Source of the DNA: an uncultured Muribaculaceae bacterium | GTDB lineage: Bacteria > Bacillota_I > Bacilli_A > RF39 > UBA660 | DNA length: 51,022 bases | Assembly: GCA_964454255.1 (NCBI GenBank) | Contig: CAYVSY010000001.1 | Location: 1 to 51,022, forward strand | Reading direction: 5' to 3' | Shown here: positions 4,417-43,141 of the stretch, one piece after another | Layout of the letters: every line of letters begins with the position of its first letter | Position numbering within the stretch: the first letter of the stretch is position 1 | The notes under the pieces: generated by a model | Databases searched by the model: none | Seen by the model: only the letters and a program-made list of their open reading frames with translations | What the model was told of the DNA's origin: nothing | Translations under genes and position numbers: made by a program

Positions 4417-4490
4417 GCCGTTTTAGTTCAGTGGTAGAATAAAAGCATGGTAAGCTTCAGACGACAGTTCAATTCTGTCAAATGGCACCA
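4417..4490 (+). tRNA. tRNA-Thr (anticodon GGU), CCA encoded
   Basis: Hand-folded cloverleaf. Acceptor GCCGTTT/AAATGGC (one G-U); D arm GTTC/GAAT; anticodon stem AAAGC/GCTTC with loop ATGGTAA; T arm GACAG-TTCAATT-CTGTC; then ACCA. 74 nt. Confidence 0.88.
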
Positions 4491-11270: not shown

Positions 11271-12766
<1,496 letters not shown>

Positions 12767-12834
12767 CTTTATTATATTATACGTTTGTGAATAGAATTTT
12801 ATTCTTTTTCACATAATATATATGGTGATTAAAA

Positions 12835-13476
12835 ATGGATATTTGGATAATTTGTTTTAGAGCAATAATTTTTTATGTATTTATAATATTTATATACCGT
12901 CTTATGGGAAAAAGAGAAGTAGGACAATTAAGTATTGTTGATTTGATTGTATCAATATTAATTGCAGAATTAGCCGCAATGAGTATAGAAAATTTTAATG
13001 ATTCACTATTAAATTCCTTATTACCTATATTAATATTAACTATATTTCAAATAGTTTTAGCATATATTACATTACGTAAACCAGGTATTCGAAATTTTTT
13101 AGATGGCAAACCTTCTGTTATTATTAATAATGGTCTTGTTAATTTTAAAGAAATGACTAGTCAAAAATATAATTTAGATGATTTATTACTTCAAATACGT
13201 GAAAAAGGATATCGCAGTATTGAAGATATTGAATATGCAATTCTAGAAAACAATGGTAAATTATCTGTATTTCCAAAAAAAGTGTTAAAGTCTCCATTAC
13301 CTTTACCATTAATCTTAGATGGTGAAGTTCAAAAAGATACATTAACATTTTTAAATAAAAATCAAGAATGGTTAAATTTGATGTTAGAAAAAAAAGAATT
13401 AATTATTGATGAAATATTTTATGCATTTTTTAAAGATAAAAGTATATATTTTATAAAAAAAGATGAATTAAAATAA
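12835..13476 (+). CDS. DUF421 (YetF/YrbG-like) membrane protein
   Basis: YRLMGKREVGQLSIVDLIVSILIAELAA is typical of the DUF421 N terminus. Confidence 0.75.
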   Translation: MDIWIICFRAIIFYVFIIFIYRLMGKREVGQLSIVDLIVSILIAELAAMSIENFNDSLLNSLLPILILTIFQIVLAYITLRKPGIRNFLDGKPSVIINNGLVNFKEMTSQKYNLDDLLLQIREKGYRSIEDIEYAILENNGKLSVFPKKVLKSPLPLPLILDGEVQKDTLTFLNKNQEWLNLMLEKKELIIDEIFYAFFKDKSIYFIKKDELK

Positions 13477-13499
13477 AGATTTTTATATCTTTATTTTTT
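13472..13499 (+). terminator. rho-independent terminator
   Basis: AATAAAGAT-TTTTAT-ATCTTTATT (9-bp stem), followed by a T run. Confidence 0.5.
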
Positions 13500-13531
13500 A
13501 ATTTGTGATATCATTTATATGGGTGATTTTT

Positions 13532-13942
13532 ATGCAATATAATAGAAGTGAATTAAGAGAAAAAATTATGACTATTTTATATCAAATTGAGTTGTATAAA
13601 AAAAATAATATTAAATATACTTTTGAAGATATTGTAAATGAACAACTTGATATTGAAAATGAATTTGTTGATCAAATTTGTCGTGGTGTTTTAGATAATA
13701 AAAATACTATAAATGAAATGGCTAATAAGTATTTAAATAATTGGAATATTGATAGATTGGGATTAACTGATCAATCTATTTTACGTATGGCAATCTATGA
13801 AATTTTATGGACTGATACACCAGATTTAGTTTGTATTAATGAAGCCATTGAATTAGCTAAAAGATTTTCTGACGATAAGGTTGTTACTATGATTAATGGT
13901 GTTTTAGATAAAATATACCATGATAAGGTTAATAATGAATAA
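13532..13942 (+). CDS. nusB: transcription antitermination factor NusB
   Basis: R.ELREKIM..LYQ...; DRLGLTDQSILRMAIYEI; INEAIELAKRF. ATG 13532 lies after GGGTGA. Confidence 0.9.
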   Translation: MQYNRSELREKIMTILYQIELYKKNNIKYTFEDIVNEQLDIENEFVDQICRGVLDNKNTINEMANKYLNNWNIDRLGLTDQSILRMAIYEILWTDTPDLVCINEAIELAKRFSDDKVVTMINGVLDKIYHDKVNNE

Positions 13943-15200
13943 TAATTATATTAGCGTATCAGAAGTAAATATTTATATTAAAAAATTAATGGAAAATGAT
14001 TTCTTATTAAATAAAATTTTTGTTAAAGGTGAAATATCTAATTTCAAAGCTCATACTAGTGGACATTTTTATTTTACTTTGAAAGATGATAAAAGTAGAA
14101 TTAGTGTCGTAATGTTTTCATCAAATGCTAGTAAGATAAAATGGATGCCAAAAGACGGTATGAAAGTTTTATTAACTGGTAGAATTAGTGTTTATGAAGT
14201 TAATGGTAACTATCAAGTATATGCTGATGATATGTTAGAAGATGGAATAGGTAATTTATATATTGCATATGAAGAATTAAAGAAAAAACTTAGTAAAGAA
14301 GGTTTATTCGATAAAGAACATAAGAAAAAAATTCCACGGATTCCAAAAAAAATTGGAATTATTACGGCACCTACGGGGGCAGCTATTAGAGATATTTTAG
14401 CGACTATTAAAAGACGTTTTCCTATTTGCGAAACAATTTTGTTTCCATCTTTAGTTCAAGGCGATGGTGCTGCTAATGATATTGCTAAAAAAATAAACAT
14501 TGCTAGTAGATATAATATTGATTTACTTATTGTAGGTCGTGGTGGTGGATCTATTGAAGATTTATGGCCTTTTAATGAAGAAATAGTTGCAAGAGCAATT
14601 TATGATTGTTCTGTCCCAGTAATTAGTGCTGTAGGTCATGAAATTGATTTTGTTATTAGTGATTTTGTGGCAGATTTGCGTGCACCTACACCAACTGCAG
14701 CGGCTGAACTTGCTGTTCCTGATATATCTACTATATTAGATTATATTAATAATGCCAAAAATAGGAGCTATACAGCTATTAATAATAATATTTACAATTA
14801 TCAATTAAAATTATTAAAATTAAATGATAGCTATGCGTTAAAAAAACCATTATCAATTTATGAGATTAAAGCTCAAAAATTAGATAATATTGTTGATAGA
14901 TTAAATATTTTTATTAAAAATAATATTGATAAATATCATATTAAATTATTTGAAATAAAAAATAATTATATTTTAAATAATCCTAATTTCTTGTTCAAAT
15001 ATAATGAACAAGAATTAAATAAATTAATTTCTAAATTAGAAGTTTTAAATCCTTTAAATACATTGAAAAGAGGATATTCTATTACTAAAAAAGATAATGA
15101 AATTATTGGAACTATTAAAAATATTAAACTTAATGACAAAGTAACAATTAATTTAAAAGATGGTTCTTTTGAAAGTATTGTTTGTGGAATGGGAGAGTAG
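13935..15200 (+). CDS. xseA: exodeoxyribonuclease VII large subunit
   Basis: ISVSEVN...GEISNFKAHTSGHFYFTLKD; GIITAPTGAAIRDI; GRGGGSIEDLWPFNEE; GHEIDFVISDFVADLRAPTPTAAAE. Overlaps the nusB stop. Confidence 0.93.
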   Translation: MNNNYISVSEVNIYIKKLMENDFLLNKIFVKGEISNFKAHTSGHFYFTLKDDKSRISVVMFSSNASKIKWMPKDGMKVLLTGRISVYEVNGNYQVYADDMLEDGIGNLYIAYEELKKKLSKEGLFDKEHKKKIPRIPKKIGIITAPTGAAIRDILATIKRRFPICETILFPSLVQGDGAANDIAKKINIASRYNIDLLIVGRGGGSIEDLWPFNEEIVARAIYDCSVPVISAVGHEIDFVISDFVADLRAPTPTAAAELAVPDISTILDYINNAKNRSYTAINNNIYNYQLKLLKLNDSYALKKPLSIYEIKAQKLDNIVDRLNIFIKNNIDKYHIKLFEIKNNYILNNPNFLFKYNEQELNKLISKLEVLNPLNTLKRGYSITKKDNEIIGTIKNIKLNDKVTINLKDGSFESIVCGMGE

Positions 15201-15201
15201 T

Positions 15202-15426
15202 ATGAAATTAACATTTGAAGAAAAAATTAAAAAATTAGAAAGTATTGTTTCGGAATTAGAAAACGGTTCAGTGAATTTAGATGATGCCATTAATAAATAT
15301 ACTGAAGCAATGAAATTAGCAAAAGAGTGTAATCAATTTTTATCTGATACGACGGATAAAGTTAATAAAATTTTATTAGAATCAGGTGAATTAAAAGAAT
15401 TTTCAGTAGAAGAAAAGAGTGAATAA
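15202..15426 (+). CDS. xseB: exodeoxyribonuclease VII small subunit
   Basis: MKLTFEEKIKKLESIVSELENGSVNLDDAI. The real start is ATG 15202, not 15160 as in the ORF track. Confidence 0.9.
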   Translation: MKLTFEEKIKKLESIVSELENGSVNLDDAINKYTEAMKLAKECNQFLSDTTDKVNKILLESGELKEFSVEEKSE

Positions 15427-15435
15427 TATCACTCT

Positions 15436-16428
15436 TTAATTTTCCCCTTCTTCTAACATGTTTGTTATAAAAATACCATAGCCTTTAATTGGATTATCTA
15501 CAACTACATGGGTTACGGCCCCTATAATGTAATCATTTTGAATTATTGGACTTCCGCTCATTCCTTGAACAATTCCACCTGTAACACTTAATAATGATTC
15601 GTCAATTATTTCAAATAATATATTTTTATTTCTTTTGTTTTTTTCACTTAAATTAATTATTTTAATATTGAATTCTTCGACTTTTTCATCTTTTAAAACT
15701 GTCATAATTTTAGCTTCCCCTAAATTTATATTTTCATATTTTCCAACTTTATATAATTTTTTATTAGGTATTTCTTTTGTATACTCTCCAAAAACACCAC
15801 TACTAGTATTTTCCTTTATATTTCCATAAGTGTCATTAGAATTATATCTGGCATTTTTTTCTCCTGGGGAACCATTATTACTTTTTTTAATATTAGTAAC
15901 AGTTGAATTATATATTTTTCCATTTTTAATTTCAAATTTTTCACCAGTTGTTTTTTCTAAAATTTCATGACCTAATGCACCATATAATTTAGTATTAGGA
16001 TCAATAAATGTTAGTGTTCCAATTCCGGTAATACTATCTTTAACATATAATCCTGATTTTATTACTTCTTCATCACTTTTTTCTAAAGGTAATTTTGTTT
16101 TTAAAATATTATTTTCTCTTTGATATTCAATATCAATGTATTTATTTTGGTCATTATTTTTAATTGTTTTAACCATTTCTTCAATACTTGATATTTTTAT
16201 ATCATTAATTTTTAATATTCTGTCACCAATTTGTAAATTTGCTTCTTTAGCTGGATATTTGCCATTTACTTCATAAAATCCAACTATTATTACATTTTTG
16301 GAATTGATTTGTAGTCCAATGTTTTCACCACCAGCTATTATGTATTCGGAATACGCAAATACATTTAATGGTATTATTAGTAGAAGAAAAAGGAATATAA
16401 ATTTGTTTTTTATCTTTTTAAAAAACAT
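15436..16428 (-). CDS. spoIVB: SpoIVB peptidase (S55) with PDZ domain
   Basis: PDZ segment GDRILKINDIKI; catalytic region GGIVQGMSGSPIIQNDYIIGAVTHV; signal anchor. ATG 16428 follows AAGGAG. Confidence 0.85.
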   Translation of the reverse strand: MFFKKIKNKFIFLFLLLIIPLNVFAYSEYIIAGGENIGLQINSKNVIIVGFYEVNGKYPAKEANLQIGDRILKINDIKISSIEEMVKTIKNNDQNKYIDIEYQRENNILKTKLPLEKSDEEVIKSGLYVKDSITGIGTLTFIDPNTKLYGALGHEILEKTTGEKFEIKNGKIYNSTVTNIKKSNNGSPGEKNARYNSNDTYGNIKENTSSGVFGEYTKEIPNKKLYKVGKYENINLGEAKIMTVLKDEKVEEFNIKIINLSEKNKRNKNILFEIIDESLLSVTGGIVQGMSGSPIIQNDYIIGAVTHVVVDNPIKGYGIFITNMLEEGEN

Positions 16429-16532
16429 ATATTTCATCTCCTTTTTAAATTTCACAAGCTACATAATTAGTATTAATTAAAATATAAAAGGTATACTAGT
16501 GAATATAAACCAATTTTTTAAAATATTATATA

Positions 16533-17273
16533 TTGGTGATAAAATTGAACTTTGATGTTAGTTTTGGTCTTACAATTATTTCTGGTTTATCCACTATGAT
16601 AGGATTCTTATTAATTTGCTTTTTTAAAAAAAATAAGGATAAGGTTATAATTGCTTCTCTTAGTTTTGCGGCTGGCGTTTTAATAATGGTATCTTTTTCA
16701 GAATTAATATTTGATTCTTTAAAATTTTTTCCTAATAATAAATATATTTATTGTTTTATTTTTTGTATAATTGGAATATTATTTTCGATATTAATTGATA
16801 AAATTGAACCTAAAAAAACCAACTATAATAACAAGAAGTTATATAAAGTTGGTATATTTATGATAATATCTATTTTTATTCATAACATTTTAGAAGGTAT
16901 GATGACTTTTATGACTTCAACATTTGATCTATCATTAGGTGTTTCTCTTACGATCGCGATATGTTTACATAACATTCCAGAAGGAATTTCAATTGCAATT
17001 CCAATTTATTATTCAACATATTCTAAGAAAAAAGCTTTTTTTTGGACTTTGTTTTCTAGTCTTTCTGAACCTATCGGTGGTTTAATTGCTTATTTTTTTT
17101 TAATGCCATATTTATCAAATTTTTTATTAGGAATTATGTTTAGCATAATTGCTGGAATAATGTTATATATTTCAACATTTGAATTATTACCTAATTCTTT
17201 AAACTATAATAATAAATTATTAACATTGTTATTTTTTATTTTAGGCATAATATTTATAGTAGTAAAATTTTAA
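16533..17273 (+). CDS. zupT: ZIP-family zinc transporter
   Basis: HNILEGM and HNIPEGISIA motifs; 7-8 TM segments. Start codon uncertain (TTG 16533, GTG 16536 or TTG 16545). Confidence 0.8.
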   Translation: MVIKLNFDVSFGLTIISGLSTMIGFLLICFFKKNKDKVIIASLSFAAGVLIMVSFSELIFDSLKFFPNNKYIYCFIFCIIGILFSILIDKIEPKKTNYNNKKLYKVGIFMIISIFIHNILEGMMTFMTSTFDLSLGVSLTIAICLHNIPEGISIAIPIYYSTYSKKKAFFWTLFSSLSEPIGGLIAYFFLMPYLSNFLLGIMFSIIAGIMLYISTFELLPNSLNYNNKLLTLLFFILGIIFIVVKF

Positions 17274-17360
17274 ATTTAATAAATTTTAAATTTATTATAT
17301 TATTATAATGACAAATATCAATTTTTTTGATATAATTATCTACGATAGTGAGGTATTAAT

Positions 17361-18074
17361 ATGAATCTTTCAATAATAAGTTCAAATGAAAATTACGATT
17401 TGTGTTTTTTAAGAAAAAATAAATGGTCATATTTTATTTCTATACCTAAGGATAAATATAATAATTTTTCAATATGCGTTAATTTTCGAAATGATACACA
17501 TGAACTAGATATTCTTACTAATGATTTAAGTGATATTAAACAAAAAATATATAATATTTGCAATCCGTTAGAAAAAACAGTATGCATCTTAGTTATTCCT
17601 ATGCTTGAAGAAAAACATATTATTGATTTTAAAAAATTATCGATAGACAATTATGATAGGGTTTTTATTGCCAATGTTATCAATGATGCATATAAATATT
17701 TAATAGGTCGTAATTATAAAATAGATGATGAGGTTATTGTCTTAAATGATAATCAATTTTCTAATTTTGTTCTTGTTTTAGATCAAATGTTTAAAAATAG
17801 TATTTTAGTAAAAACAGTATATGAACTTCAAAAAGAGCATAAATATTATGAAGTAGTTAGAGAACCTTCTGAAATAAAATTAATGGATGCAAATGGTGTA
17901 AATATTGTCGTTGGAACAGAGGGTGTAGTAGAAAAAAAAGAAAGTTCAGGTAAAGTTATTGTAATTGCTCCAGATAAAAATATTAATTATATTACGAGAA
18001 CTGTAGGTCCAACCAAGAGGGAAAAAAAAGACACTGTTGAAAACGAACTAGATGATTTTGATAAAATTAATTAA
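17361..18074 (+). CDS. hypothetical protein
   Basis: 237-aa ORF with RBS GTGAGG. No recognisable motif. Confidence 0.45.
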   Translation: MNLSIISSNENYDLCFLRKNKWSYFISIPKDKYNNFSICVNFRNDTHELDILTNDLSDIKQKIYNICNPLEKTVCILVIPMLEEKHIIDFKKLSIDNYDRVFIANVINDAYKYLIGRNYKIDDEVIVLNDNQFSNFVLVLDQMFKNSILVKTVYELQKEHKYYEVVREPSEIKLMDANGVNIVVGTEGVVEKKESSGKVIVIAPDKNINYITRTVGPTKREKKDTVENELDDFDKIN

Positions 18075-18178
18075 TAAATTAATTTTTAGAATAAAAAACA
18101 GACTTGTGCTATTTTTTTATTTAAAATAATTTAACTGATTAATATTATAAAAAAAAACAAATAATTGTCTTTAATTTT

Positions 18179-18307
18179 TTATAAATAAAAGAAACTTGCA
18201 AAAGTAGTAATTAACAAAGTTAATAATAAGATGACAGCTATTACTCTAGTAATTAAATTTTGTGATTTTACTTTTCTTTTTTTATTTTTTATTTCTTTAT
18301 TTTTCAT
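18179..18307 (-). CDS. possible 42-aa single-pass membrane protein (below the ORF-track cutoff)
   Basis: GGAGAAAG-N7-ATG, then MKNKEIKNKKRKVKSQNLITRVIAVILLLTLLITTFASFFYL*. Divergent from spoIIM. Confidence 0.3.
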   Translation of the reverse strand: MKNKEIKNKKRKVKSQNLITRVIAVILLLTLLITTFASFFYL

Positions 18308-18395
18308 ATAATGATCTTTCTCCTTATCTTTTATTATTATACTAAAAAAGTGTCATAAATTCAACATTAAATTAATATTATTTATTGGTGAAAGA

Positions 18396-19007
18396 ATGAA
18401 AAATAAAATTAATGAACTATTAAAGAAAGTTTTACCCAATAAAAATTTAAATATTTTTATTATTTTAATTGTTATAATTGGCGTCCTATTTGGAACTATT
18501 TTCTTTTTAAATACTACTCCTGATGATAAAAAAAATATTTCTGATTCAATTATTTTGTGGAAACAAGGGATAAATAATACTAATTTTGGACAAGTATTTA
18601 TTAATGCTTTATTTAGTAATTTTTTATATTTGTTTTTAATATATATTTTTGGAATATCATTAATTGGGATTGTTGTTAATATTTTTTTAATCTTTTTTAA
18701 AGGGTTTATTATTGGATTCAACATAGCTACTTTTATTTCTTTATTCAGTTTTAAAGGCATTTTGTATTCTTTTGAATATGTTGTTTTTTCTCAGATTTTA
18801 TTAATTATTGCTATTTCAATTTTAGGAATTTATAGTATTATATTTTCATATGAAGTTCTTAAATCTTTAACTAAAAAAAAGGTATTTGATTTTAAAATAT
18901 TTTTAAAAAAATATAATATAATATTTTTAATATCTTTTGGGTTTATTTTTTTATCATCTTTATTTGAAGCTTTTTTATTTCCAATTTTATTAAAACTAAC
19001 TAGTTAA
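18396..19007 (+). CDS. spoIIM: stage II sporulation protein M-like (DUF95) membrane protein
   Basis: 203 aa with 5 TM segments. FINALFSNFLYLFLIYIFGISLIGIVVNIFLIFFKGFIIGF is typical of SpoIIM. Confidence 0.65.
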   Translation: MKNKINELLKKVLPNKNLNIFIILIVIIGVLFGTIFFLNTTPDDKKNISDSIILWKQGINNTNFGQVFINALFSNFLYLFLIYIFGISLIGIVVNIFLIFFKGFIIGFNIATFISLFSFKGILYSFEYVVFSQILLIIAISILGIYSIIFSYEVLKSLTKKKVFDFKIFLKKYNIIFLISFGFIFLSSLFEAFLFPILLKLTS

Positions 19008-19093
19008 TGTTTATTATTTGTAAATTTTGTGTTAAAATATATTTAGAGTTTTGATATAGTAAACTTATTTTCTATTTTAAAGAAGGTGTAGGT

Positions 19094-20203
19094 ATGGAGA
19101 CAGTTGTTATTGGAATGAGTGGGGGAGTTGATAGTAGTGTAGCCGCCATTCTTTTGAAAGAACAGGGTTATAAAGTTATGGGGTTATTTATGCGTAATTG
19201 GGATAGTTCTATTAATAATGATTTTCTTGGTAATCCAAATTTAAATAATTCTATATGTCCACAAGAACAAGATTATAATGATGCTTTAGAAGTTTGTAAA
19301 AAATTAGGTATTGAATTACATCGGATTGATTTTGTGAAAGAATACTGGGATAATGTTTTTTCATATTTTTTAAGTGAATTAAAAAAAGGTAGGACACCAA
19401 ATCCAGATATTATGTGTAATAAATATATTAAATTTGATTTGTTTATAAAAGAAGCTAAAAAATTAGGTGCTGATTATGTAGCAACTGGTCATTATGCAAA
19501 AACAAAAAATGGATATTTATTTAAAGCATTTGATGATAATAAAGATCAATCATATTTTTTATCTTTTTTATCAAATTTTCAACTTAATAATGTTTTATTT
19601 CCTCTAGGAAATATTAAAAAAGATAAAGTTCGAGAAATAGCTAAAAAATTTGATTTAGTAACAGCCACTAAAAAAGATTCTACGGGCATATGTTTTATTG
19701 GTGAAAGAAATTTTAAACAGTTTTTAAAAAATTATTTACCTAATCAACCTGGATCAATTGTTAATATTGCAAACAAAAAAAATGTTGGAGAACATAATGG
19801 TTTAATGTATTGGACAATTGGACAACGTCGAGGATTAAATATTGGTGGTAATGACGAAAAGATGTTCGTGGTAGGGAAAAATTTAAAAAATAATATTTTG
19901 TATGTTGCCTTTGGTGAAAATAATGAATATTTATATAGTGATTCTGCTATTATAGAAAATTTTAATTGGATTCATAAAAAGGATGTAGATATATATTATG
20001 CAAAATTTAGATATCGTCAAGATGATAATGAAGTTTTAATTGAAGAACTTAGTGATGATGAAATATTAGTTAAATATCCACAAAAAATAAAAGCTGTTAC
20101 ACCTGGACAAGCATGCGTTTTATATGACAAAAATGGTGAATGTCTTGGAGGTGGAATAATTAAACAAGTTTTTAAAAATAATGATAAAATATGGTATCTT
20201 TAA
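19094..20203 (+). CDS. mnmA: tRNA 2-thiouridine(34) synthase
   Basis: VVIGMSGGVDSSVAA, NPDIMCN, ATGHYA, DQSYFL and DSTGICFIGE. Confidence 0.96.
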   Translation: METVVIGMSGGVDSSVAAILLKEQGYKVMGLFMRNWDSSINNDFLGNPNLNNSICPQEQDYNDALEVCKKLGIELHRIDFVKEYWDNVFSYFLSELKKGRTPNPDIMCNKYIKFDLFIKEAKKLGADYVATGHYAKTKNGYLFKAFDDNKDQSYFLSFLSNFQLNNVLFPLGNIKKDKVREIAKKFDLVTATKKDSTGICFIGERNFKQFLKNYLPNQPGSIVNIANKKNVGEHNGLMYWTIGQRRGLNIGGNDEKMFVVGKNLKNNILYVAFGENNEYLYSDSAIIENFNWIHKKDVDIYYAKFRYRQDDNEVLIEELSDDEILVKYPQKIKAVTPGQACVLYDKNGECLGGGIIKQVFKNNDKIWYL

Positions 20204-20216
20204 TTTTGATTTACAC

Positions 20217-20244
20217 TTGACATATTTTGTATAAATGATAAAAT
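20217..20244 (+). promoter_or_regulatory. sigma-A promoter TTGACA-16-TAAAAT
   Basis: -35 at 20217-20222; -10 at 20239-20244; AGGAGG RBS at 20251-20256. Confidence 0.5.
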
Positions 20245-20264
20245 ATTAACAGGAGGTCATGATA

Positions 20265-21044
20265 ATGAAACAAATGGAAAAATTTAACGAAATATTAAAA
20301 AAAACAAATATATCTAAAGTAAATTTGGCTAAATATTTAAATGTTTCTAGACAAATGTTATATAATTATTTAGATTGCGATGATTTAAATAAATTACCAA
20401 AAGAAAAAAAGAATTTAATATTATCTTTACTTGAAGTCGAAACAATTGAACAAATAGATGATATTGTTATAGATGACAAATACATTGAAACAATTGAAAA
20501 TAAATTTTCATATGGAAAAAAGAGTGGAGTTAGAACTGATATTATAATTGAATTAACTAGTTTTAAAAAGGAAGAACAAGATGTTTTAAACGATATTTTC
20601 TTCATTTTAAAAGAAATTTTAAATGAAGACAAAACTAAAAATTCTTATATTAGTTTAAGGTATGTTTATCATTTTTTACAAGCTATGTCTAATACTAAAG
20701 AAATTAAATATATATTGGGATATGTTGCTAAAGCTGCTGGTTTTGTAAAACCAACATCATATGATTTTGATCAAGATCATCAGTTTACTTTTGAAAGCAT
20801 AATGTATTCTGCGATGACTTTATATGCTAATGGTGGTGCATCAAGAACCAAATTAGCTGAGTCTCATAAACGTTGGGAAGCAGAATTAGACCAAAAAAAT
20901 GAAGAAATATTAAGTCGAACTCAGGAATTGAATACTGCCAAAGTTATTGCACTTAAAGAACTTGGATATACTGAAATAAATGAGAAAAATGCTGGAGAAG
21001 TATTTGATAAAATAGCTGAAATTCAAGCAAGAAAAATAGCATAA
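20265..21044 (+). CDS. helix-turn-helix (XRE-like) domain protein, function unknown
   Basis: ISKVNLAKYLNVSRQMLYNYL is an HTH. The remaining 200 aa are unrecognised. ATG 20265 has better RBS spacing than 20259. Confidence 0.5.
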   Translation: MKQMEKFNEILKKTNISKVNLAKYLNVSRQMLYNYLDCDDLNKLPKEKKNLILSLLEVETIEQIDDIVIDDKYIETIENKFSYGKKSGVRTDIIIELTSFKKEEQDVLNDIFFILKEILNEDKTKNSYISLRYVYHFLQAMSNTKEIKYILGYVAKAAGFVKPTSYDFDQDHQFTFESIMYSAMTLYANGGASRTKLAESHKRWEAELDQKNEEILSRTQELNTAKVIALKELGYTEINEKNAGEVFDKIAEIQARKIA

Positions 21045-21060
21045 ATTTTATGCTTTTTTT
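21038..21060 (+). terminator. rho-independent terminator
   Basis: AGCATAA-ATT-TTATGCT, followed by TTTTTT. Confidence 0.5.
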
Positions 21061-21083
21061 GAATAATTAAATTATTTATGTAA

Positions 21084-21947
21084 TGTGCACAATTTGTAGT
21101 AAATGAAAAATGTGTTTCTAAGGCTAATTATTATGCTGAAAAATTTAATTTGTTAAATGATTTTATTAATGTTTCTATAAATAATCTTGAAAATACTATT
21201 AATCAAGATTATTACAATTATGATAAAAACAAAAAAAATTACAAATTTTCTAAAATAGCATTAGAAAAAATATTTTATTATTGTATTAAGCCTGGAAAAT
21301 TAGAATTAAACAAAATGTTAAAACAAATTTTTGGATTTGATATAAAAAAATTAGAAGGATATAGAATTAACAAAAGCGGTAAACCAGAGTTTTCAACAAT
21401 GTCAATATATAGGAGTGTTGTAAATATTGCTAATTCATATAATTATAAATTTGAATGGATAGAAAATGTCAATATATACAATAAAGTTATATACTACATG
21501 ACAATTGTTCCAAGTTACTTAGATTTGATTAATATTATTGAAAATGACATAGATATTTAATACACATTTAATGATATGCTATTAACACAATTAAATTTTA
21601 TGCAAGTAAAGAAAAAATTTGACTATGAAAAAGACACAAGAGAATATTTTATAAAAAAATATGCAATTAAAAATGATGGTTTACCACAAATTAGTTTAGA
21701 ATTTGTTGATGATATTATTAGTTCTCCTCAAGTAAAAAAAACATTAAGACAATCAATAAAAATAATTAATAATATTATAAAAGAAAAAAAACAATTACCT
21801 TCTATTATATCAATTGAATCTACTAAAGAAATGAATAGTAAAAATATGAAAACAATAATAGAATCCACTCAAAAAAAGAAGGAATTTTTAAAAACTACTG
21901 CAAAAAATACCATAGAAAAATTATTTGGTATAGATTATATTGAATAA
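21084..21947 (+). pseudogene. cas9: Cas9 remnant (REC lobe to RuvC-II only), with an in-frame stop and truncated at both ends
   Basis: A single frame, 21084-21947, is interrupted by TAA at 21558. KANYYAEKFNLLNDFINVSI, LEGYRINKSGKPEFSTMSIY and FVDDIISSPQVKKTLRQSIKIINNIIKEKKQLPSIISIESTKEMNSKN are collinear with recalled SaCas9 KYAYNADLYNALNDLNNLVI, IKGYRVTSTGKPEFTNLKVY and LVDDFILSPVVKRSFIQSIKVINAIIKKYGLPNDIIIELAREKNSKD. Confidence 0.75.
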
Positions 21948-22036
21948 ATCAAGATATAAAAAAAGATATTACTATGAATATAATAATATCAATAATTTTA
22001 TATATAATTTATAATCATTTTATAACAAAATTAATT

Positions 22037-22064
22037 GGTTCCTATAATTAATATTATGTTAACT
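22037..22064. other. dif: dif-type Xer recombination site (11-6-11)
   Basis: GGTTCCTATAA-TTAATA-TTATGTTAACT compared with recalled Firmicute dif ACTTCCTA(T/G)AA-TATATA-TTATGTAAACT and the E. coli right arm TTATGTTAAAT. It sits at the convergent switch in gene orientation. Confidence 0.75.
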
Positions 22065-23456
22065 TGTGTTATTTTCATTTAATTTTTGATTGTTAATTTT
22101 AAGTTCCACATCTAATAAATTGTTAAATTCATCACTTATTTCTTTTAATCTTTCGGTAGTTTTTGCTTCATATCTGATAGTAATATTTGGTCCAGTATTT
22201 GATGCTCTAATTAATGCAAAACCATCATCAAAAATAACTTTTATGCCATCTATTGTTAAAATATTATATTTTTTATTAATGGTGTAGTTTTTTATATTTT
22301 CAATTATTTTTTCTTTTATTTCATCTCTTACTTTTATTTTTATTTCTGGAGTATTGTAATAAGTATTAATTCCATCTAATAGTTCTGATATTTTTTTATT
22401 TGTATTGGATAATATTTCTATTATTCTAAGTCCAGCATAAATTCCATCATCATAACCAGGGAATTTATCTTGAAAATATATGTGACCTGATAATTCTCCA
22501 CCAAATGGTAAATTTTCACTAACCATTTTAGCTTTTGTATATGAATTGCCTGTTCTATATTGAATTGGTTCTATATTTAATTTTTTCATTTCATCTTCTA
22601 AACATTTAGAACATTTTACGTCAAATAATCCTCTTTTGTCAGAAATTTTGTTATATATATATCTCCATACTATGATCATTAATTTGTCAATCGGTATCAT
22701 ATTCCCTTTTTCATCTATTACCCCTATTCTATCTCCATCACCGTCAAAACCGATACCTAAATCAGCTTTGTTTTTGATAACTTCTTTTTTAAGGAATGTC
22801 ATATTTTCTTCTTCACATGGATCTGGATGGTGATTTGGAAAATTACCATTTGATATATCAAATAAAGGTATACATTCAATATTTAATTTTGAAAATACCT
22901 GATTAGCTATTATACTTGTTGTTCCATTACCACAATCATAAATTACTTTTAATGGTTTCTTTGTTAGTTTTATTTCTTTTAATAATAAATTAACATATTC
23001 TGAACTAACGTCAACTTCTTTTATACTACCCTTCCCCACACTTGTCCATTTATTGTCAAGTATAATGTCATATATTTCGTATACATCTTTACCATATGCA
23101 TTATGGTTTTTATTATAACAGAATTTAAATCCGTTGTATTCTTTTGGATTATGAGAGGCAGTAATCATTACTCCACAATCAATGTTTAATAAATCTCTGC
23201 CATAATAATACATTGGTGTTGTGACTAAACCTAAACTAGTTATATTGATTCCTGTTTCTAATAATCCTTTTATTATATTATCATATAATGATTTAGATGA
23301 AAGTCTATTATCATAACCAATTAAAGCTTCATTCTTTTCTTGTTCTATTATTTTTTTTCCAAATGCTTTTCCAAATAAATAAGCTGTTTCTTCATTTAAT
23401 TCTGTTGGATATATCCCTCTAATATCATATTCTCTAAATATATTTTTTTTAATCAT
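22059..23456 (-). CDS. phosphomannomutase/phosphoglucomutase (alpha-D-phosphohexomutase)
   Basis: ITASHNPKEYNGFKF (phosphoserine loop), GFDGDGDR (metal loop) and GELSGH. Confidence 0.9.
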   Translation of the reverse strand: MIKKNIFREYDIRGIYPTELNEETAYLFGKAFGKKIIEQEKNEALIGYDNRLSSKSLYDNIIKGLLETGINITSLGLVTTPMYYYGRDLLNIDCGVMITASHNPKEYNGFKFCYNKNHNAYGKDVYEIYDIILDNKWTSVGKGSIKEVDVSSEYVNLLLKEIKLTKKPLKVIYDCGNGTTSIIANQVFSKLNIECIPLFDISNGNFPNHHPDPCEEENMTFLKKEVIKNKADLGIGFDGDGDRIGVIDEKGNMIPIDKLMIIVWRYIYNKISDKRGLFDVKCSKCLEDEMKKLNIEPIQYRTGNSYTKAKMVSENLPFGGELSGHIYFQDKFPGYDDGIYAGLRIIEILSNTNKKISELLDGINTYYNTPEIKIKVRDEIKEKIIENIKNYTINKKYNILTIDGIKVIFDDGFALIRASNTGPNITIRYEAKTTERLKEISDEFNNLLDVELKINNQKLNENNTS

Positions 23457-23469
23457 TATTTCCTTCTTT

Positions 23470-24351
23470 CTAACTTCTTGGATGAAAAGTATTGTAATTA
23501 TTTTGTAGTTCTTTATTTTCTATGTGCAAGTATATTCCTGTAGTCGTTATATTATTATGACCTAACATTTCTTGAACGCTTCTTAAGTCAGCTCCATTTT
23601 GAACTAAATGAGTGGCAAATGAATGTCTTAAAGTGTGTGGAGTAATATTCTTTTTTATATTTGTATGAGAAGTAATTTCTTTTAATATTTTAAAAAAGCC
23701 TTGTCTAGTGATACATTCACCGCGATTATTTAAAAATATTGCATCCGTTTTATAATCTTTTTTTAAATTATCACGATATTTATCAATATATATTTTTAAC
23801 CATTTTATAGCGATATCTCCAATTGGAATAATTCTTTCCTTCATCCCTTTTCCATAGCATCTAACAGTTTCTCTATCAATATCAATATTATTTAATGCAA
23901 GATTACATAACTCGCTTACTCTTAATCCAGTGGCATACATCAGTTCTAGCATTGCTTTATTGCGATAATCGTAAGCCGTTTTTATTTTAAAATTTAATAA
24001 TTCATTTATTTCTTCAATATTTAAATACGTTGGTAAAGTTTTAATATGTCGTGGTATTTCAATATCTTTTCCAATATTATTAACGTAATATTTTTTTGAA
24101 TAAAATAAACAAAAGTTTCTTAAGGCAGATATTTTTCTTTCTATACTATTTACTCTATAATTATTATTTTTTAAGTATTTTACATAATTATTAATATTTT
24201 CAATATTATATATTTCTTTTATTTTCTTTTCAGTTAAATATTTTAAGTAATATTTAATATCATTTGTATATCCTTCTTTTGAATTATCATATAGATGTCT
24301 GTCAACTAATAAAAAATTATTAAAATCGTCTAATACTTTTTTTTTATTCAT
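23470..24351 (-). CDS. XerC/XerD-type site-specific tyrosine recombinase
   Basis: ATGLRVSEL, HTLRHSFATHL and LGHNNITTTGIYLH give the R..HxxR..H..Y tetrad. 293 aa. Confidence 0.85.
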   Translation of the reverse strand: MNKKKVLDDFNNFLLVDRHLYDNSKEGYTNDIKYYLKYLTEKKIKEIYNIENINNYVKYLKNNNYRVNSIERKISALRNFCLFYSKKYYVNNIGKDIEIPRHIKTLPTYLNIEEINELLNFKIKTAYDYRNKAMLELMYATGLRVSELCNLALNNIDIDRETVRCYGKGMKERIIPIGDIAIKWLKIYIDKYRDNLKKDYKTDAIFLNNRGECITRQGFFKILKEITSHTNIKKNITPHTLRHSFATHLVQNGADLRSVQEMLGHNNITTTGIYLHIENKELQNNYNTFHPRS

Positions 24352-38791: not shown

Positions 38792-41157
38792 TTATTTCGT
38801 AATTTACCATTATATTTTTTAGATATTTCTAGAATTATTTTGTCTAACAAAATGTTAACTTCTTCATCAGTTAATGTTTTATCATAATTTTCAAATAATA
38901 AATTAAAAGCAATTGATTTTGAACTTTCACCAATTTTTGTTCCAGTATATATATCAAATATTTTTATATTTGTTAGTAATTTGCCACCAATTGTTTTAAT
39001 TGTATCAATTATTATATTGGCAGTTATATTTTTATCTAATATAAAAGCAATATCTTTACTTATACTTGGATATTTATTAATTTCTTTGTATTTTATTTGA
39101 CTAGTTTTAAAATCAAATAATGAATCTAAATCTATTTCAATAACATATACTTCATTTGGTTCAAGACTAGGAATAATTCTTCCTATGTTACCTATGCTTT
39201 TTTTATTTACTATTATTTCAGCTGATTGATATGGATGAAACTCTTTTGGGATAGTGTTGCTTGCTTTTATTTCATATCGATTATTATAACCTAAATAATT
39301 TAATAATTCTTCAATTATCATTTTTGCAATATAAAAGTCAACATTTTTTTTATATTCTAAACTATCATAATATAAACCTGTCATTAGAATAGACAAAGTA
39401 TTTTTTTCTAAATAATCATTATCTTTCTTGTAAAATGAATGCCCTATTTCAAATATACATACATCTTTTATATTTCTAGCTGTGTTATATTTATATACTT
39501 TGTATAATGATGGAATTAAACTATATCTTAAGGTTGTTTTTTCTTCTGTCATTGGATCTAATATTTTTATTTCATCATATTTATCATTAGTCCATTTATG
39601 ATTATTTTCAAAGCTTTCTAAAGAATAAGTTAATGTTTCATTTAAACCAAGCGATGCTAATTTTTCTTTTATATTTCTTATTTTTTTGTTTATGTATCCA
39701 GGAATTATATTTAATTTTGGTAGTTTACCAACAATATTATCAACTCCATATATTCGTCCAACTTCTTCAATTAAATCACATTCCATATTAATGTCAATTC
39801 TTCTTTGAGGAACACTAACGGTCATATTTCCATTATTATTTTTAACTTTAAATCCTAAACGTTCAAAAACATCAATAATGCTCTTATCGTTTATTTCTAA
39901 ACCTAATGTTTCATTAATTTTTTTAAAAGTAATATTAATTTGTTTGTCTTCTTTTATGGTAATATCATGAGCAATTATATCGGAATTTATCTTACCATTA
40001 GCATATTTTTCTAACAAGTGACATGCTCTTTCAATGGCAAGATATGTTCTATTGGCGTCAAGACCTTTTTCAAAACGGATACTTGCTTCAGAGCGAAGAA
40101 ATTTGTTAGATGTTTTTCTCACTTTGTATGAATCAAATATAGCTGATTCAATAATTATATTTTTAGTGTTAATATCTATTTCAGTTTCAAAGCCACCCAT
40201 AACACCAGCAAGTCCAACTGTATTTTTTTTATTTGCAATAACAATATCTTCAGGATCTAATTTACGAATTATCCCATCAATTGTTTTTAATTGTTCATTT
40301 TCTTTGGCATTTCTAACAATAATTTGATTGCCTAATTTATCAGCATCATAAAAGTGTAAAGGTTGACCTGTTTCTAACATCACATAATTACTTATATCAA
40401 CAATATTATTTATTGGTCTAATGCCAGAGGCAATTAATCGATTTTTTATTATTTCAGGGCTTTCATTAATTGTTATATTAGTTACTTTTTTTACTAAAAA
40501 AATTGGACAATCATTAGTTTCAATACTTAAGTCAAAGTTATTTTTAATTGATTCATTTATTTGGTTATAGGTTGTATCAATATTTTTAATTTTGGTATTA
40601 TATATAGCTCCTATTTCGTATGCCATTCCTAATATGCTTAATAAATCACCTCTATTTGCCGTTAATTCAAAATCAATTATTTCATCATCGAATTGTTCAT
40701 ATTTTATTGGTTCTTCACCTATTTTGGCGTTGTTTGAAAGAATATGAATTCCGTTTTTTTCATCTTCGCTGATATATTTATTATCTAATCCTAATTCATT
40801 TAATGAGCATATCATACCGTTTGATTCTATACCTCGAATAATTGATTTTTTAATTTTTCCACCAATTAATTCAGCTCCATTTTGAGCTACGATAACATTA
40901 ATTCCTTCACGGACGTTTGGTGCACCACACACTATAGTTAATATTTCTTTACCAATATCAACCATACATACATGCAAATGATCACTATTAGGATGATTTT
41001 CACATTTAATTACTTTACCAATTATTAAATTAGTTCCAGTAATTAGTTTACTAAGGTTATTATATTCATTCCCTACTCTAGTCATATCATCGGCTAAAGT
41101 TTTTGTATCAGTTGGAATATCGATATAGTCGCTAACAAATTTTCTACTTAATTTCAT
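38788..41157 (-). CDS. pheT: phenylalanine--tRNA ligase beta subunit
   Basis: tRNA-binding domain, B3/4, B5 and FDX-ACB domains. 789 aa. Overlaps pheS. Confidence 0.97.
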   Translation of the reverse strand: MKLSRKFVSDYIDIPTDTKTLADDMTRVGNEYNNLSKLITGTNLIIGKVIKCENHPNSDHLHVCMVDIGKEILTIVCGAPNVREGINVIVAQNGAELIGGKIKKSIIRGIESNGMICSLNELGLDNKYISEDEKNGIHILSNNAKIGEEPIKYEQFDDEIIDFELTANRGDLLSILGMAYEIGAIYNTKIKNIDTTYNQINESIKNNFDLSIETNDCPIFLVKKVTNITINESPEIIKNRLIASGIRPINNIVDISNYVMLETGQPLHFYDADKLGNQIIVRNAKENEQLKTIDGIIRKLDPEDIVIANKKNTVGLAGVMGGFETEIDINTKNIIIESAIFDSYKVRKTSNKFLRSEASIRFEKGLDANRTYLAIERACHLLEKYANGKINSDIIAHDITIKEDKQINITFKKINETLGLEINDKSIIDVFERLGFKVKNNNGNMTVSVPQRRIDINMECDLIEEVGRIYGVDNIVGKLPKLNIIPGYINKKIRNIKEKLASLGLNETLTYSLESFENNHKWTNDKYDEIKILDPMTEEKTTLRYSLIPSLYKVYKYNTARNIKDVCIFEIGHSFYKKDNDYLEKNTLSILMTGLYYDSLEYKKNVDFYIAKMIIEELLNYLGYNNRYEIKASNTIPKEFHPYQSAEIIVNKKSIGNIGRIIPSLEPNEVYVIEIDLDSLFDFKTSQIKYKEINKYPSISKDIAFILDKNITANIIIDTIKTIGGKLLTNIKIFDIYTGTKIGESSKSIAFNLLFENYDKTLTDEEVNILLDKIILEISKKYNGKLRNN

Positions 41158-42184
41158 CTGTATCTTCCTTTCTACTAAAGTTATTCAAAAATCTTATATC
41201 ATTTGCATATAAATATCTTATATCAGGAATTTGGTATTTTAACATGGCTACTCTTTCAATTCCTATTCCAAATGCGAAACCACTATATATTTCTGGATTA
41301 TAGCCATTCATTTTTAATACATTAGGATGAACCATACCAGAACCTAGTATTTCTATCCAACCAGTATTTTTACATAATGAGCATCCTGTTCCATTACATT
41401 TAAAACAACTTATATCAACTTCATATGATGGCTCAGTAAACGGAAAATAACTTGCTCTAAAACGAATCTTTGTATTTTTTCCAAATAAATGTTTTAATAA
41501 TTTTTCTAATGTCCCTTTTAAATCAGCTAAACTTATATTTTTATCTATTAATAGCCCCTCAATTTGAGTAAATTGGTGAGAATGTGTTGCATCATCATCA
41601 CGGCGATATGTTTTACCAGGACAAATTATTCTGATTGGCGTTTTTTTTAAATTTTCTTGCATAGTTCTAGCTTGCATTGGTGAAGTATGAGTTCTTAATA
41701 ACATTTCATCATTAATGTAGAATGTGTCTTGAGCATCTCTAGCTGGATGACCTTTTGGTAAATTTAATAATTCAAAATTAAAATAATCACTTTCTACTTC
41801 CGGACCTTGAATGACACTATATCCCATTGATACAAATAAATCTTCAATATCTTCGATAATTATTGTATTAGGATGCAGACTGCCTTGCCTAATTTTTATA
41901 GATGGTTCTGAAACATCTATACGATCATTTTCTAATTTTTTATTTAATTCTTCCTTTTCAAATTTATTTAATAACAATTCATAATTGTCATTAAATAAAT
42001 TTCTTAATTCCTGAAGTTTTATTCCATATTCTTTTTTTTCGTCTTTTGGAATATCAATCATTTTAGAACTTTGTTCAGTAATTATTCCTTTTTTCCCATT
42101 ATATTTAATTTTTAAATCGTTTAAATCATTTAAATTGTTTACATTTTTTAAATCTTCTTGTAATAATTCTTTAATATTTTCCAT
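41144..42184 (-). CDS. pheS: phenylalanine--tRNA ligase alpha subunit
   Basis: HPARDAQDTFY, LRTHTSP, FRASYFPFTEPS and GFAFGIGIERVAML. Confidence 0.97.
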   Translation of the reverse strand: MENIKELLQEDLKNVNNLNDLNDLKIKYNGKKGIITEQSSKMIDIPKDEKKEYGIKLQELRNLFNDNYELLLNKFEKEELNKKLENDRIDVSEPSIKIRQGSLHPNTIIIEDIEDLFVSMGYSVIQGPEVESDYFNFELLNLPKGHPARDAQDTFYINDEMLLRTHTSPMQARTMQENLKKTPIRIICPGKTYRRDDDATHSHQFTQIEGLLIDKNISLADLKGTLEKLLKHLFGKNTKIRFRASYFPFTEPSYEVDISCFKCNGTGCSLCKNTGWIEILGSGMVHPNVLKMNGYNPEIYSGFAFGIGIERVAMLKYQIPDIRYLYANDIRFLNNFSRKEDTDEIK

Positions 42185-42204: not shown

Positions 42205-42365
42205 AAAAAAAAGATAGCACCACTTAAGGACGAGAATTCCCGTGGTACCACCTTATTTTATAACATTGTTATACACTTAATTTATAACGCTTTTTAGCGA
42301 TAAAACTAAAGAGTGAATTCATACTTTTTATTTATTAGTTTCCATCAGCCACTAACTTTCTATAA
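42205..42365 (-). promoter_or_regulatory. T-box leader (Phe specifier UUC) for pheST
   Basis: The minus strand has ATGAATTCACTC (GAA-UUC-A specifier), AATAAGGTGGTACCACGGG (T-box) and a terminator ending in T8. Confidence 0.9.
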
Positions 42366-42403
42366 AATAATTGAAGTATTACTATTTTCTTATTATTGTT
42401 TTA

Positions 42404-43141
42404 TTAATTGTTTTTATTTTCTTGTAAAAATCTGACTAATTTTTTTTGTTTTACTTCTTTTTCTTCACTATTTTCGTAAGTATTATGTATACCATATCTA
42501 GATGAATAAGAGTGAATTGCATTGGCAAAAGTATTTGCTTGTCTTAATTTTGTAATTTCATCATTGGTATAATATGTATTATTAAAATTATTCTTGTCTA
42601 TATCTAAAATATAAGCCGGTTCGATTTTTAATAGTTGCTGGTAATTAGGACTATTAATATGTTCTTTTGATAATTGTTTTAAAAATATATTGTTTAGTAT
42701 AATTGAATCAGCATATTCAAATCGATATTCATTATTAAGCATCAAAGTTTTTAAAAGTGCATCTATAACATCTTTAATAAAAACATTTTCGTTCAATAAT
42801 TTTGGAGATAAAAATTGGACATTATCTAATCCAAATTTATATTGTGTTTTATTATTAAAAATTATTTCTTTAGCAATGTAAATGTCATTATTGTATGGTG
42901 TGCACCATATATCACTTGGATAATATTTAATTACACTCTTAACAATTGTGTAATCTTCTTTTTCTTCTTGTCCAAAATGTTCTAGTCCACCACAGGCTAA
43001 AATAATTTCTATTTTTTTAGCTAAACAATAACTATATAAATCAAAATTATTATTAGTGCTAATAATATTGCTGTTTGATATTATCTTTTCTAATTCTTCT
43101 AATTCTTCAATACTTGGAATATATACCTTCTTATTTTCCAT
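42404..43141 (-). CDS. hypothetical protein
   Basis: 245-aa ORF with a GGGGA RBS. No confident motif. Confidence 0.45.
   Translation of the reverse strand: MENKKVYIPSIEELEELEKIISNSNIISTNNNFDLYSYCLAKKIEIILACGGLEHFGQEEKEDYTIVKSVIKYYPSDIWCTPYNNDIYIAKEIIFNNKTQYKFGLDNVQFLSPKLLNENVFIKDVIDALLKTLMLNNEYRFEYADSIILNNIFLKQLSKEHINSPNYQQLLKIEPAYILDIDKNNFNNTYYTNDEITKLRQANTFANAIHSYSSRYGIHNTYENSEEKEVKQKKLVRFLQENKNN

Follow-up and report, generated by a model that had tools for sequence, protein, structure and literature searches.

The window, as we call the whole 51,022-nt stretch of DNA analyzed here, carries between the gene ORF261 and a dif-like XerCD site (GGTTCCTATAATTAATATTATGTTAACT) an 864-nt segment that reads, on the plus strand, as a single frame of 288 codons interrupted by one TAA codon (Table 1). 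A TAA at 21081-21083 stands just before the first codon of this frame, the TGT at 21084, and the frame ends in a TAA at 21945-21947; for a sequence of this composition (~23% GC), ~25 stops per 288 codons would be expected by chance in a random frame. Two ORFs, 21150-21560 and 21576-21947, both lie in the frame, and the initial annotation of this DNA, which had described one frame from 21084 to 21947 in which these two ORFs are split by the TAA at 21558, was exact in its coordinates.

On the left flank, ORF261 has a weak N-terminal helix-turn-helix signature (below threshold in Pfam) and the JGI label XRE-family regulator; we assigned it to no family. On the right, an AT-rich spacer leads to the dif-like site, which is unique in the window, is adjacent to xerD, and extends over the final codons of the convergent gene of the phosphoglucosamine/phosphomannomutase (PGM/PMM) family; the B. 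subtilis dif sequence used for the comparison is confirmed in PMC3025954. Both GC skew and gene orientation switch at 21 to 22 kb, and the skew reaches its maximum there. Judged by its sequence, the site is the predicted chromosomal dif site marking the terminus. The spacer contains an imperfect 22-nt tandem duplication (21978-22024; ATATAATAATATCAATAATTTTAT, two copies) that has no detectable relation to CRISPR repeats. Elsewhere in the window, we noted two features of an ordinary kind, a T-box leader (42223-42405, minus strand; 106 bits) upstream of the gene at 41144-42184 (minus strand) and a single tRNA gene (4417-4487, plus strand).

Table 1. Features of the region between ORF261 and xerD, in window coordinates
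Feature	Position	Strand	Remarks
ORF261, HTH-containing gene, left flank	20259-21044	+	Synteny SpoIIM-MnmA-ORF261 conserved
Terminator-like hairpin and T-run after ORF261	~21037-21061	+	Also in L021, with compensating changes; read from sequence
5' deletion junction	21075-21093	+	~750 nt gone relative to L021 (blastn)
Cas9 fossil, piece A	21084-21557	+	158 codons; L008 Cas9 ~240-395; SaCas9 ~237-370; C-terminal half of REC
In-frame TAA nonsense codon	21558-21560	+	Opposite the Glu of 'IEY' in the family
Cas9 fossil, piece B	21561-21947	+	128 codons and stop; end of REC, linker, RuvC-II, start of L1
Internal in-frame deletion junction	21570-21575	+	~35 codons gone between 'YTFN' and 'DMLL'
RuvC-II catalytic Glu codon, GAA	21816-21818	+	Codon 245; SaCas9 E477 in the HMMER alignment
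3' truncation junction	21935-21950	+	Nothing from HNH onward
AT-rich spacer, fossil to dif	21948-22036	.	89 nt; no leader, repeat, or anti-repeat remnant detected
dif-like XerCD site	22037-22064	+	22/28 identical to B. subtilis dif; 89 nt past the fossil
PGM/PMM-family gene, right flank	22059-23456	-	Pfam PGM_PMM I-IV on the identical L003 gene
xerD	23470-24351	-	TIGR02225, E=1.7e-96

The segment (hereafter the fossil) is recognizable as a piece of cas9. The NCBIfam Cas9 profile TIGR01865, which the initial annotation had named for this purpose, matched it with E=6.7e-19 in two collinear stretches (profile positions 270-396 and 439-552 of 1070), the score of 67.7 bits lying under the cutoff of 100 bits for full-length matches, as a fragment should. 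PADLOC Cas9 models matched it with E=4.7e-14 and 8.6e-13, and a HMMER comparison with the SaCas9 and St1Cas9 chains in the PDB gave E values of ~1e-9 to 5e-10, with SaCas9 residues of about 235-369 and 435-499 aligned. Pfam returned no Cas9 domain, only weak, spurious matches to DUF5405 and TcdA_TcdB. Intact Cas9s of the compact family described below matched the window by tblastn with E=1.5e-67; they are 37-45% identical to the fossil, which keeps the family motifs 'FNLLNDFIN', 'KKFDY', and 'SPQVKKTLRQ'. In blastp against an intact family member, the fossil scored 265 bits, whereas the maximum over 100 shuffles of its residues was 29.6 bits, and the match is therefore not an effect of composition, which disposes of the low-complexity K/N/I explanation that the initial annotation had raised against itself.

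We give next to no credence to the fossil being an assembly or sequencing artifact or a chance low-complexity resemblance. Its sequence is indeed very AT-rich and its translation rich in K, N, and I, and its nearest database relatives (L001 and L002) are likewise frameshifted, possibly through errors. However, the same sequence recurs in two assemblies from different sequencing runs, one of them 100% identical to the window over 5305 nt, with the same stop and both ORFs (L003), and the other 99.93% identical, with the same stop and structure (L004), so that window, L003, and L004 represent effectively one strain; and neither the margin over the shuffled sequences nor the HMM E values of 1e-13 to 1e-19 in three libraries fits a chance resemblance. 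L001 and L002 were the sole matches of the first protein search, and both are on short contigs. In L001 (1-1842), cas9 is broken by two frameshifts, and in L002 (1591-3340) it has one frameshift and a deletion of ~15 codons; these lesions mark either further pseudogenes of the family or assembly errors.

On reference Cas9s, the fossil spans residues ~240-561 of the 1092-aa protein of family locus L008 and residues ~237-518 of SaCas9, and ~26% of the gene survives in it. According to the multiple alignment of the family, and with domains named after the SaCas9 structure, it runs from the C-terminal half of REC through the linker and RuvC-II into the beginning of L1. The collinearity with SaCas9 proposed in the initial annotation was thus sound (PDB E ~6e-10), but the proposed span of ~180-520 was not; likewise, 288 codons of REC and RuvC-II with one stop was a correct description, but it had passed over an in-frame internal deletion of ~35 codons. 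Taken alone, piece A matched its stretch of TIGR01865 (270-396) with E=5.8e-07 and is 40-47% identical to family Cas9s, and piece B (439-552; SaCas9 435-499 aligned) did so with E=3.2e-15 and 50-57% identity. The RuvC-II Glu, previously reported as retained, is indeed present, and its column is invariant in the family alignments, the fossil included. The position of the nonsense codon in the alignment suggests that it arose through a change of GAA to TAA. The internal deletion adjoins this stop, and both lesions cut through the REC lobe; the missing segment of ~35 residues ('YxF' to 'DM..Q.NFMQ') occurs in SaCas9, L001, and L002 as well as in every one of the 13 intact members, and only the window is without it.

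Both ends of the gene are gone, as had been claimed for RuvC-I and the bridge helix on the N-terminal side and for HNH, RuvC-III, and PI on the C-terminal side, and the alignments agree. RuvC-I with its catalytic Asp and the arginine-rich bridge helix are absent from the window, and tblastn with full-length family Cas9s found no further segment there corresponding to HNH, RuvC-III, or WED/PI. The fossil ends in 'LFGIDYIE*', ~20 residues short of the HNH CxxC motif, where family members continue with 'LYGDENVTEVNIEK...CPYC' into HNH. The native start codon and ribosome-binding site have been deleted, and there is no Shine-Dalgarno sequence, such as most real genes in the window have, at either fossil ORF, one of which would need a TTG start; promoter-like matches at the fossil were no more frequent than in shuffles. 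Because RuvC-I, the bridge helix, HNH, RuvC-III, and PI are absent, the frame is broken, and partner genes and RNAs are missing, we conclude that the segment is a cas9 pseudogene, lacking most of what characterizes a functional Cas9. For annotation, its two ORFs are one cas9 pseudogene and not hypothetical proteins.

What a complete locus of this kind looks like can be seen in 16 loci (L005-L020) found by scanning one genome per species, in a collection that does not include the window's own species. They come from MAGs of uncultured gut 'Bacilli'/'Tenericutes' in rabbit, chicken, mouse, and human samples, and cas9 is complete in 13 of them (1078-1109 aa, with start codons assigned in this analysis). 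Where the contig is long enough, the order is cas9, a tracrRNA anti-repeat, cas1 (TIGR03639, E=3.5e-85), cas2 (TIGR01573), a fourth gene, and an array of 36-nt repeats (GTTTTAGGATCCTGTRTAATTT..., up to 59 copies); the anti-repeat, on the strand of cas9 and immediately behind its stop codon, stands at the tracrRNA position. The fourth gene encodes ~298 aa and occupies the csn2 position (L008, 13884-14777; L016, 13866-14753; L013, 10474-11337; L006, 4789-5679). Pfam, NCBIfam, and PADLOC gave no match for it, and its best PDB match (E=0.036) was an unrelated designed binder; it may encode an uncharacterized Csn2-like adaptation protein. Neither the 16 family loci nor 10 metagenome loci have flanks in common with the window, and dif was not found near the family CRISPR loci in other genomes.

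None of these partners was found anywhere in the 51 kb, in keeping with the earlier statement that cas1, cas2, an array, and an anti-repeat are missing. Searches with the Cas1, Cas2, and fourth-gene proteins of the family gave no tblastn match with E<0.09 across the 51 kb, no array-like repeats were present in the window, the repeat and anti-repeat patterns of the family had 0 matches in it at three or fewer mismatches, and anti-repeat duplex and alignment scans of the window stayed at background level. Local alignment of the 111-nt interval that separates the fossil from the PGM/PMM gene with the leader, repeat, and trailer of the family likewise gave background scores. A candidate leader/repeat remnant in 21948-22058 ('TATGAATATAATAATATCAATAA', set against the family leader end 'TATGATATAATATCTATAG') did not rise above background and was rejected, and the single high score obtained in this interval, with the L015 trailer, came from a low-complexity AT match that falls on the wrong strand.

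The loss at the 5' end can be mapped against L021, a 2305-nt Logan contig that comes from a close relative and whose ORF261 homologue is 90% identical to that of the window at the amino acid level and is the closest to it among 4601 homologues. In L021, cas9 starts ('MNNYTIGLDLGINNVGWS...') 63 nt after ORF261, carries the RuvC-I motif, and runs for 293 uninterrupted codons to the end of the contig, with 59-60% identity to the proteins of L008 and L014. In blastn, L021 2-1401 aligned with window 19685-21081 (86.8%) and L021 2152-2305 with window 21094-21247 (84.4%; 154 nt), and from these two collinear blocks it follows that the window is without ~750 nt. That stretch contains the ribosome-binding site and, from the start codon onward, ~238 codons for RuvC-I, the bridge helix, and the beginning of REC, all present in L021; the junction left by its loss directly follows the terminator-like hairpin of ORF261.

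The same contig bears on the idea that a cas9 fragment is all that was ever present, for example delivered by a mobile element or through illegitimate recombination in the dif-proximal variable region, and that no complete system was lost. We regard this as very unlikely, even though what lies downstream of ORF261 varies greatly among relatives (IS elements, a dif-flanked inovirus-like prophage, tRNAs, and an unrelated SpCas9-like locus) and we found no close relative in which the locus next to ORF261 is demonstrably complete; a search with the right-flank PGM/PMM protein for the right flank of L021 gave nothing closer than 66% identity. Against the idea, L021 has the start of cas9 and 293 intact codons at exactly the same site, with collinear flanks and clean breakpoints. 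Moreover, since the 154 nt of cas9 shared by the two are 84% identical, similar to the 87% of the flanks, the two sequences point to vertical descent from a longer gene and not to separate insertions of fragments. The earlier expectation that relatives might keep the locus at this position was thus borne out for the front of cas9, and not for a complete locus.

The examined homologues of ORF261 that are 66-70% identical to it mostly keep parts of the order SpoIIM-MnmA-ORF261...PGM/PMM(-)-XerD(-)-RarA(+), and in most relatives examined ORF261 lies just before a dif-proximal variable region. The gap that follows it is empty (426 nt) in L032-L034, holds two small ORFs in L029, contains DUF2726, IS elements, or prophage in L026-L028 and L047-L049, and carries tRNAs, a class II aminoacyl-tRNA synthetase, and an unrelated SpCas9-like locus in L022-L025. 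There were no cas remnants in the empty-site relatives, and the next-closest ORF261 homologues (P0004 and P0009) are followed by tRNAs or DUF2726, not by cas9. The dif motif is also found downstream of ORF261 in L026-L029; its match is weaker in L033 and L034 (four mismatches to the consensus), and in L032 it was recognized by eye.

The SpCas9-like locus of L022-L025 (~13643-19484) is of type II-A, with a cas9 of 1330 aa, cas1, cas2, and csn2, and lies a few kilobases downstream of the ORF261 homologue. In L027, an inovirus-like prophage (12445-18990; Zot and a Rep of the ORF2-G2P type) lies between dif-like copies at 12445 and 18963, and flanking by two such copies, as read from the sequence, is the pattern of a putative Xer-integrated (IMEX) element. 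With the compact Cas9 of the window and L021, the 1330-aa SpCas9-like II-A locus, and the dif-flanked filamentous prophage as its occupants, the dif-proximal gap between ORF261 and PGM/PMM might be thought of as a terminus 'island' in which defense loci are recurrently gained and lost in these gut Bacilli, which seems to us doubtful; were it so, Xer/dif-linked integration or recombination in the terminus region may drive CRISPR-Cas turnover. In our data there were no signs of the CRISPR-Cas locus itself moving by Xer recombination.

The comparison with L021 also allowed the age of the inactivation to be estimated. dS between the two is about 0.53-0.66, and dN/dS is 0.16 for MnmA, 0.08 for ORF261, and 0.20 for cas9, the last over 48 shared codons only; the value for cas9, set against 0.08-0.16 in the flanks, indicates that the gene was constrained for most of the divergence. 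Stop-creating changes make up 6.5-9.2% of the possible substitutions in the fossil, and one stop with no frameshift in 286 codons corresponds to ~0.013-0.018 neutral substitutions per site (95% upper bound, ~0.06-0.09). Since neutral decay would account for only a small fraction of the branch, these figures suggest that the inactivation was recent, although open frames of 158 and 128 codons could also reflect selection.

Such selection would be expected if the truncated protein had been domesticated for some function, for example if the REC/RuvC-II piece bound guide RNA or interfered with incoming Cas9 systems. We consider domestication highly improbable. In its favor, two frames of 136 and 123 aa, counted from possible starts, are open in a stretch where chance would put ~25 stops, the structure is identical in three assemblies, and dN/dS is 0.20 in the overlap with L021; but a low dN/dS is expected if inactivation was recent, since the gene would then have been functional along most of the branch, and three assemblies that are effectively one strain are uninformative on selection. 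The putative protein would, moreover, have to be made from ORFs without a Shine-Dalgarno sequence, one of them from TTG, after loss of the native ribosome-binding site and start, and its REC lobe is cut through by the stop and the 35-codon deletion.

On all of this evidence, we consider it about 90% probable that the 864-nt segment is the non-functional last remnant of a type II CRISPR-Cas locus between ORF261 and dif in an uncultured low-GC (23%) gut bacterium of Bacilli/Mollicutes-like type. The initial annotation had likewise read it as what is left of a type II system that the lineage once carried and then lost almost completely next to the terminus, a view now supported by L021, by the intact family loci, and by the GC skew together with the dif-like site. 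The source gene encoded a compact Cas9 of ~1090 aa. With the site empty in the more distant relatives, it was probably the common ancestor of the window organism and L021 that acquired the compact type II locus. The window lineage would then have eroded it through the 5' loss of ~750 nt, the loss of ~35 internal codons, and one nonsense codon. A 3' deletion of at least ~5 kb, whose size and content we infer from family members that are 37-45% identical and in other genomic contexts, would have taken everything from HNH to the array inclusive and ended before dif, which probably set the right-hand limit of deletable DNA. The fragment presumably does nothing and would be in the course of removal by the deletion bias of a reduced genome.

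Loss of CRISPR-Cas in this manner is an ordinary, well-documented phenomenon, of which the fossil is a new and well-resolved example, distinguished by deletion steps that can be mapped against L021 and the empty-site relatives and by its site beside dif. It adds a data point on the gain and loss dynamics of type II systems and brings no new mechanism and no new question.

Among known systems, the fossil is collinear with the compact Cas9s that TIGR01865 describes, in the size class of SaCas9 and the S. thermophilus CRISPR1 Cas9; unlike them, it has one nonsense codon and a 35-codon deletion, and the window has no tracrRNA, cas1, cas2, or array to accompany it. It resembles IMEX and other dif-proximal variable regions in lying 89 nt from a dif-like site and by xerD, whereas the window, unlike an IMEX, has no second copy of dif. 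The closest parallel lies in the type II loci of Mollicutes, which are degraded in 8 of 21 CRISPR-bearing species (Ipoutcha et al. 2019, PMC6882279) and share with the family described here the ancestral order cas9, tracrRNA, cas1, cas2, fourth gene, and array. In both cases, the genomes are small and AT-rich, with frequent inactivation and erosion. Compared with the Mollicutes loci (PMC6882279), however, the host of the window belongs to an uncultured gut lineage and, to judge from the window, uses standard stop codons, the erosion in the window is more advanced, having left a single internal piece of cas9 and no array, and the steps by which the deletions proceeded can be mapped against a close relative.
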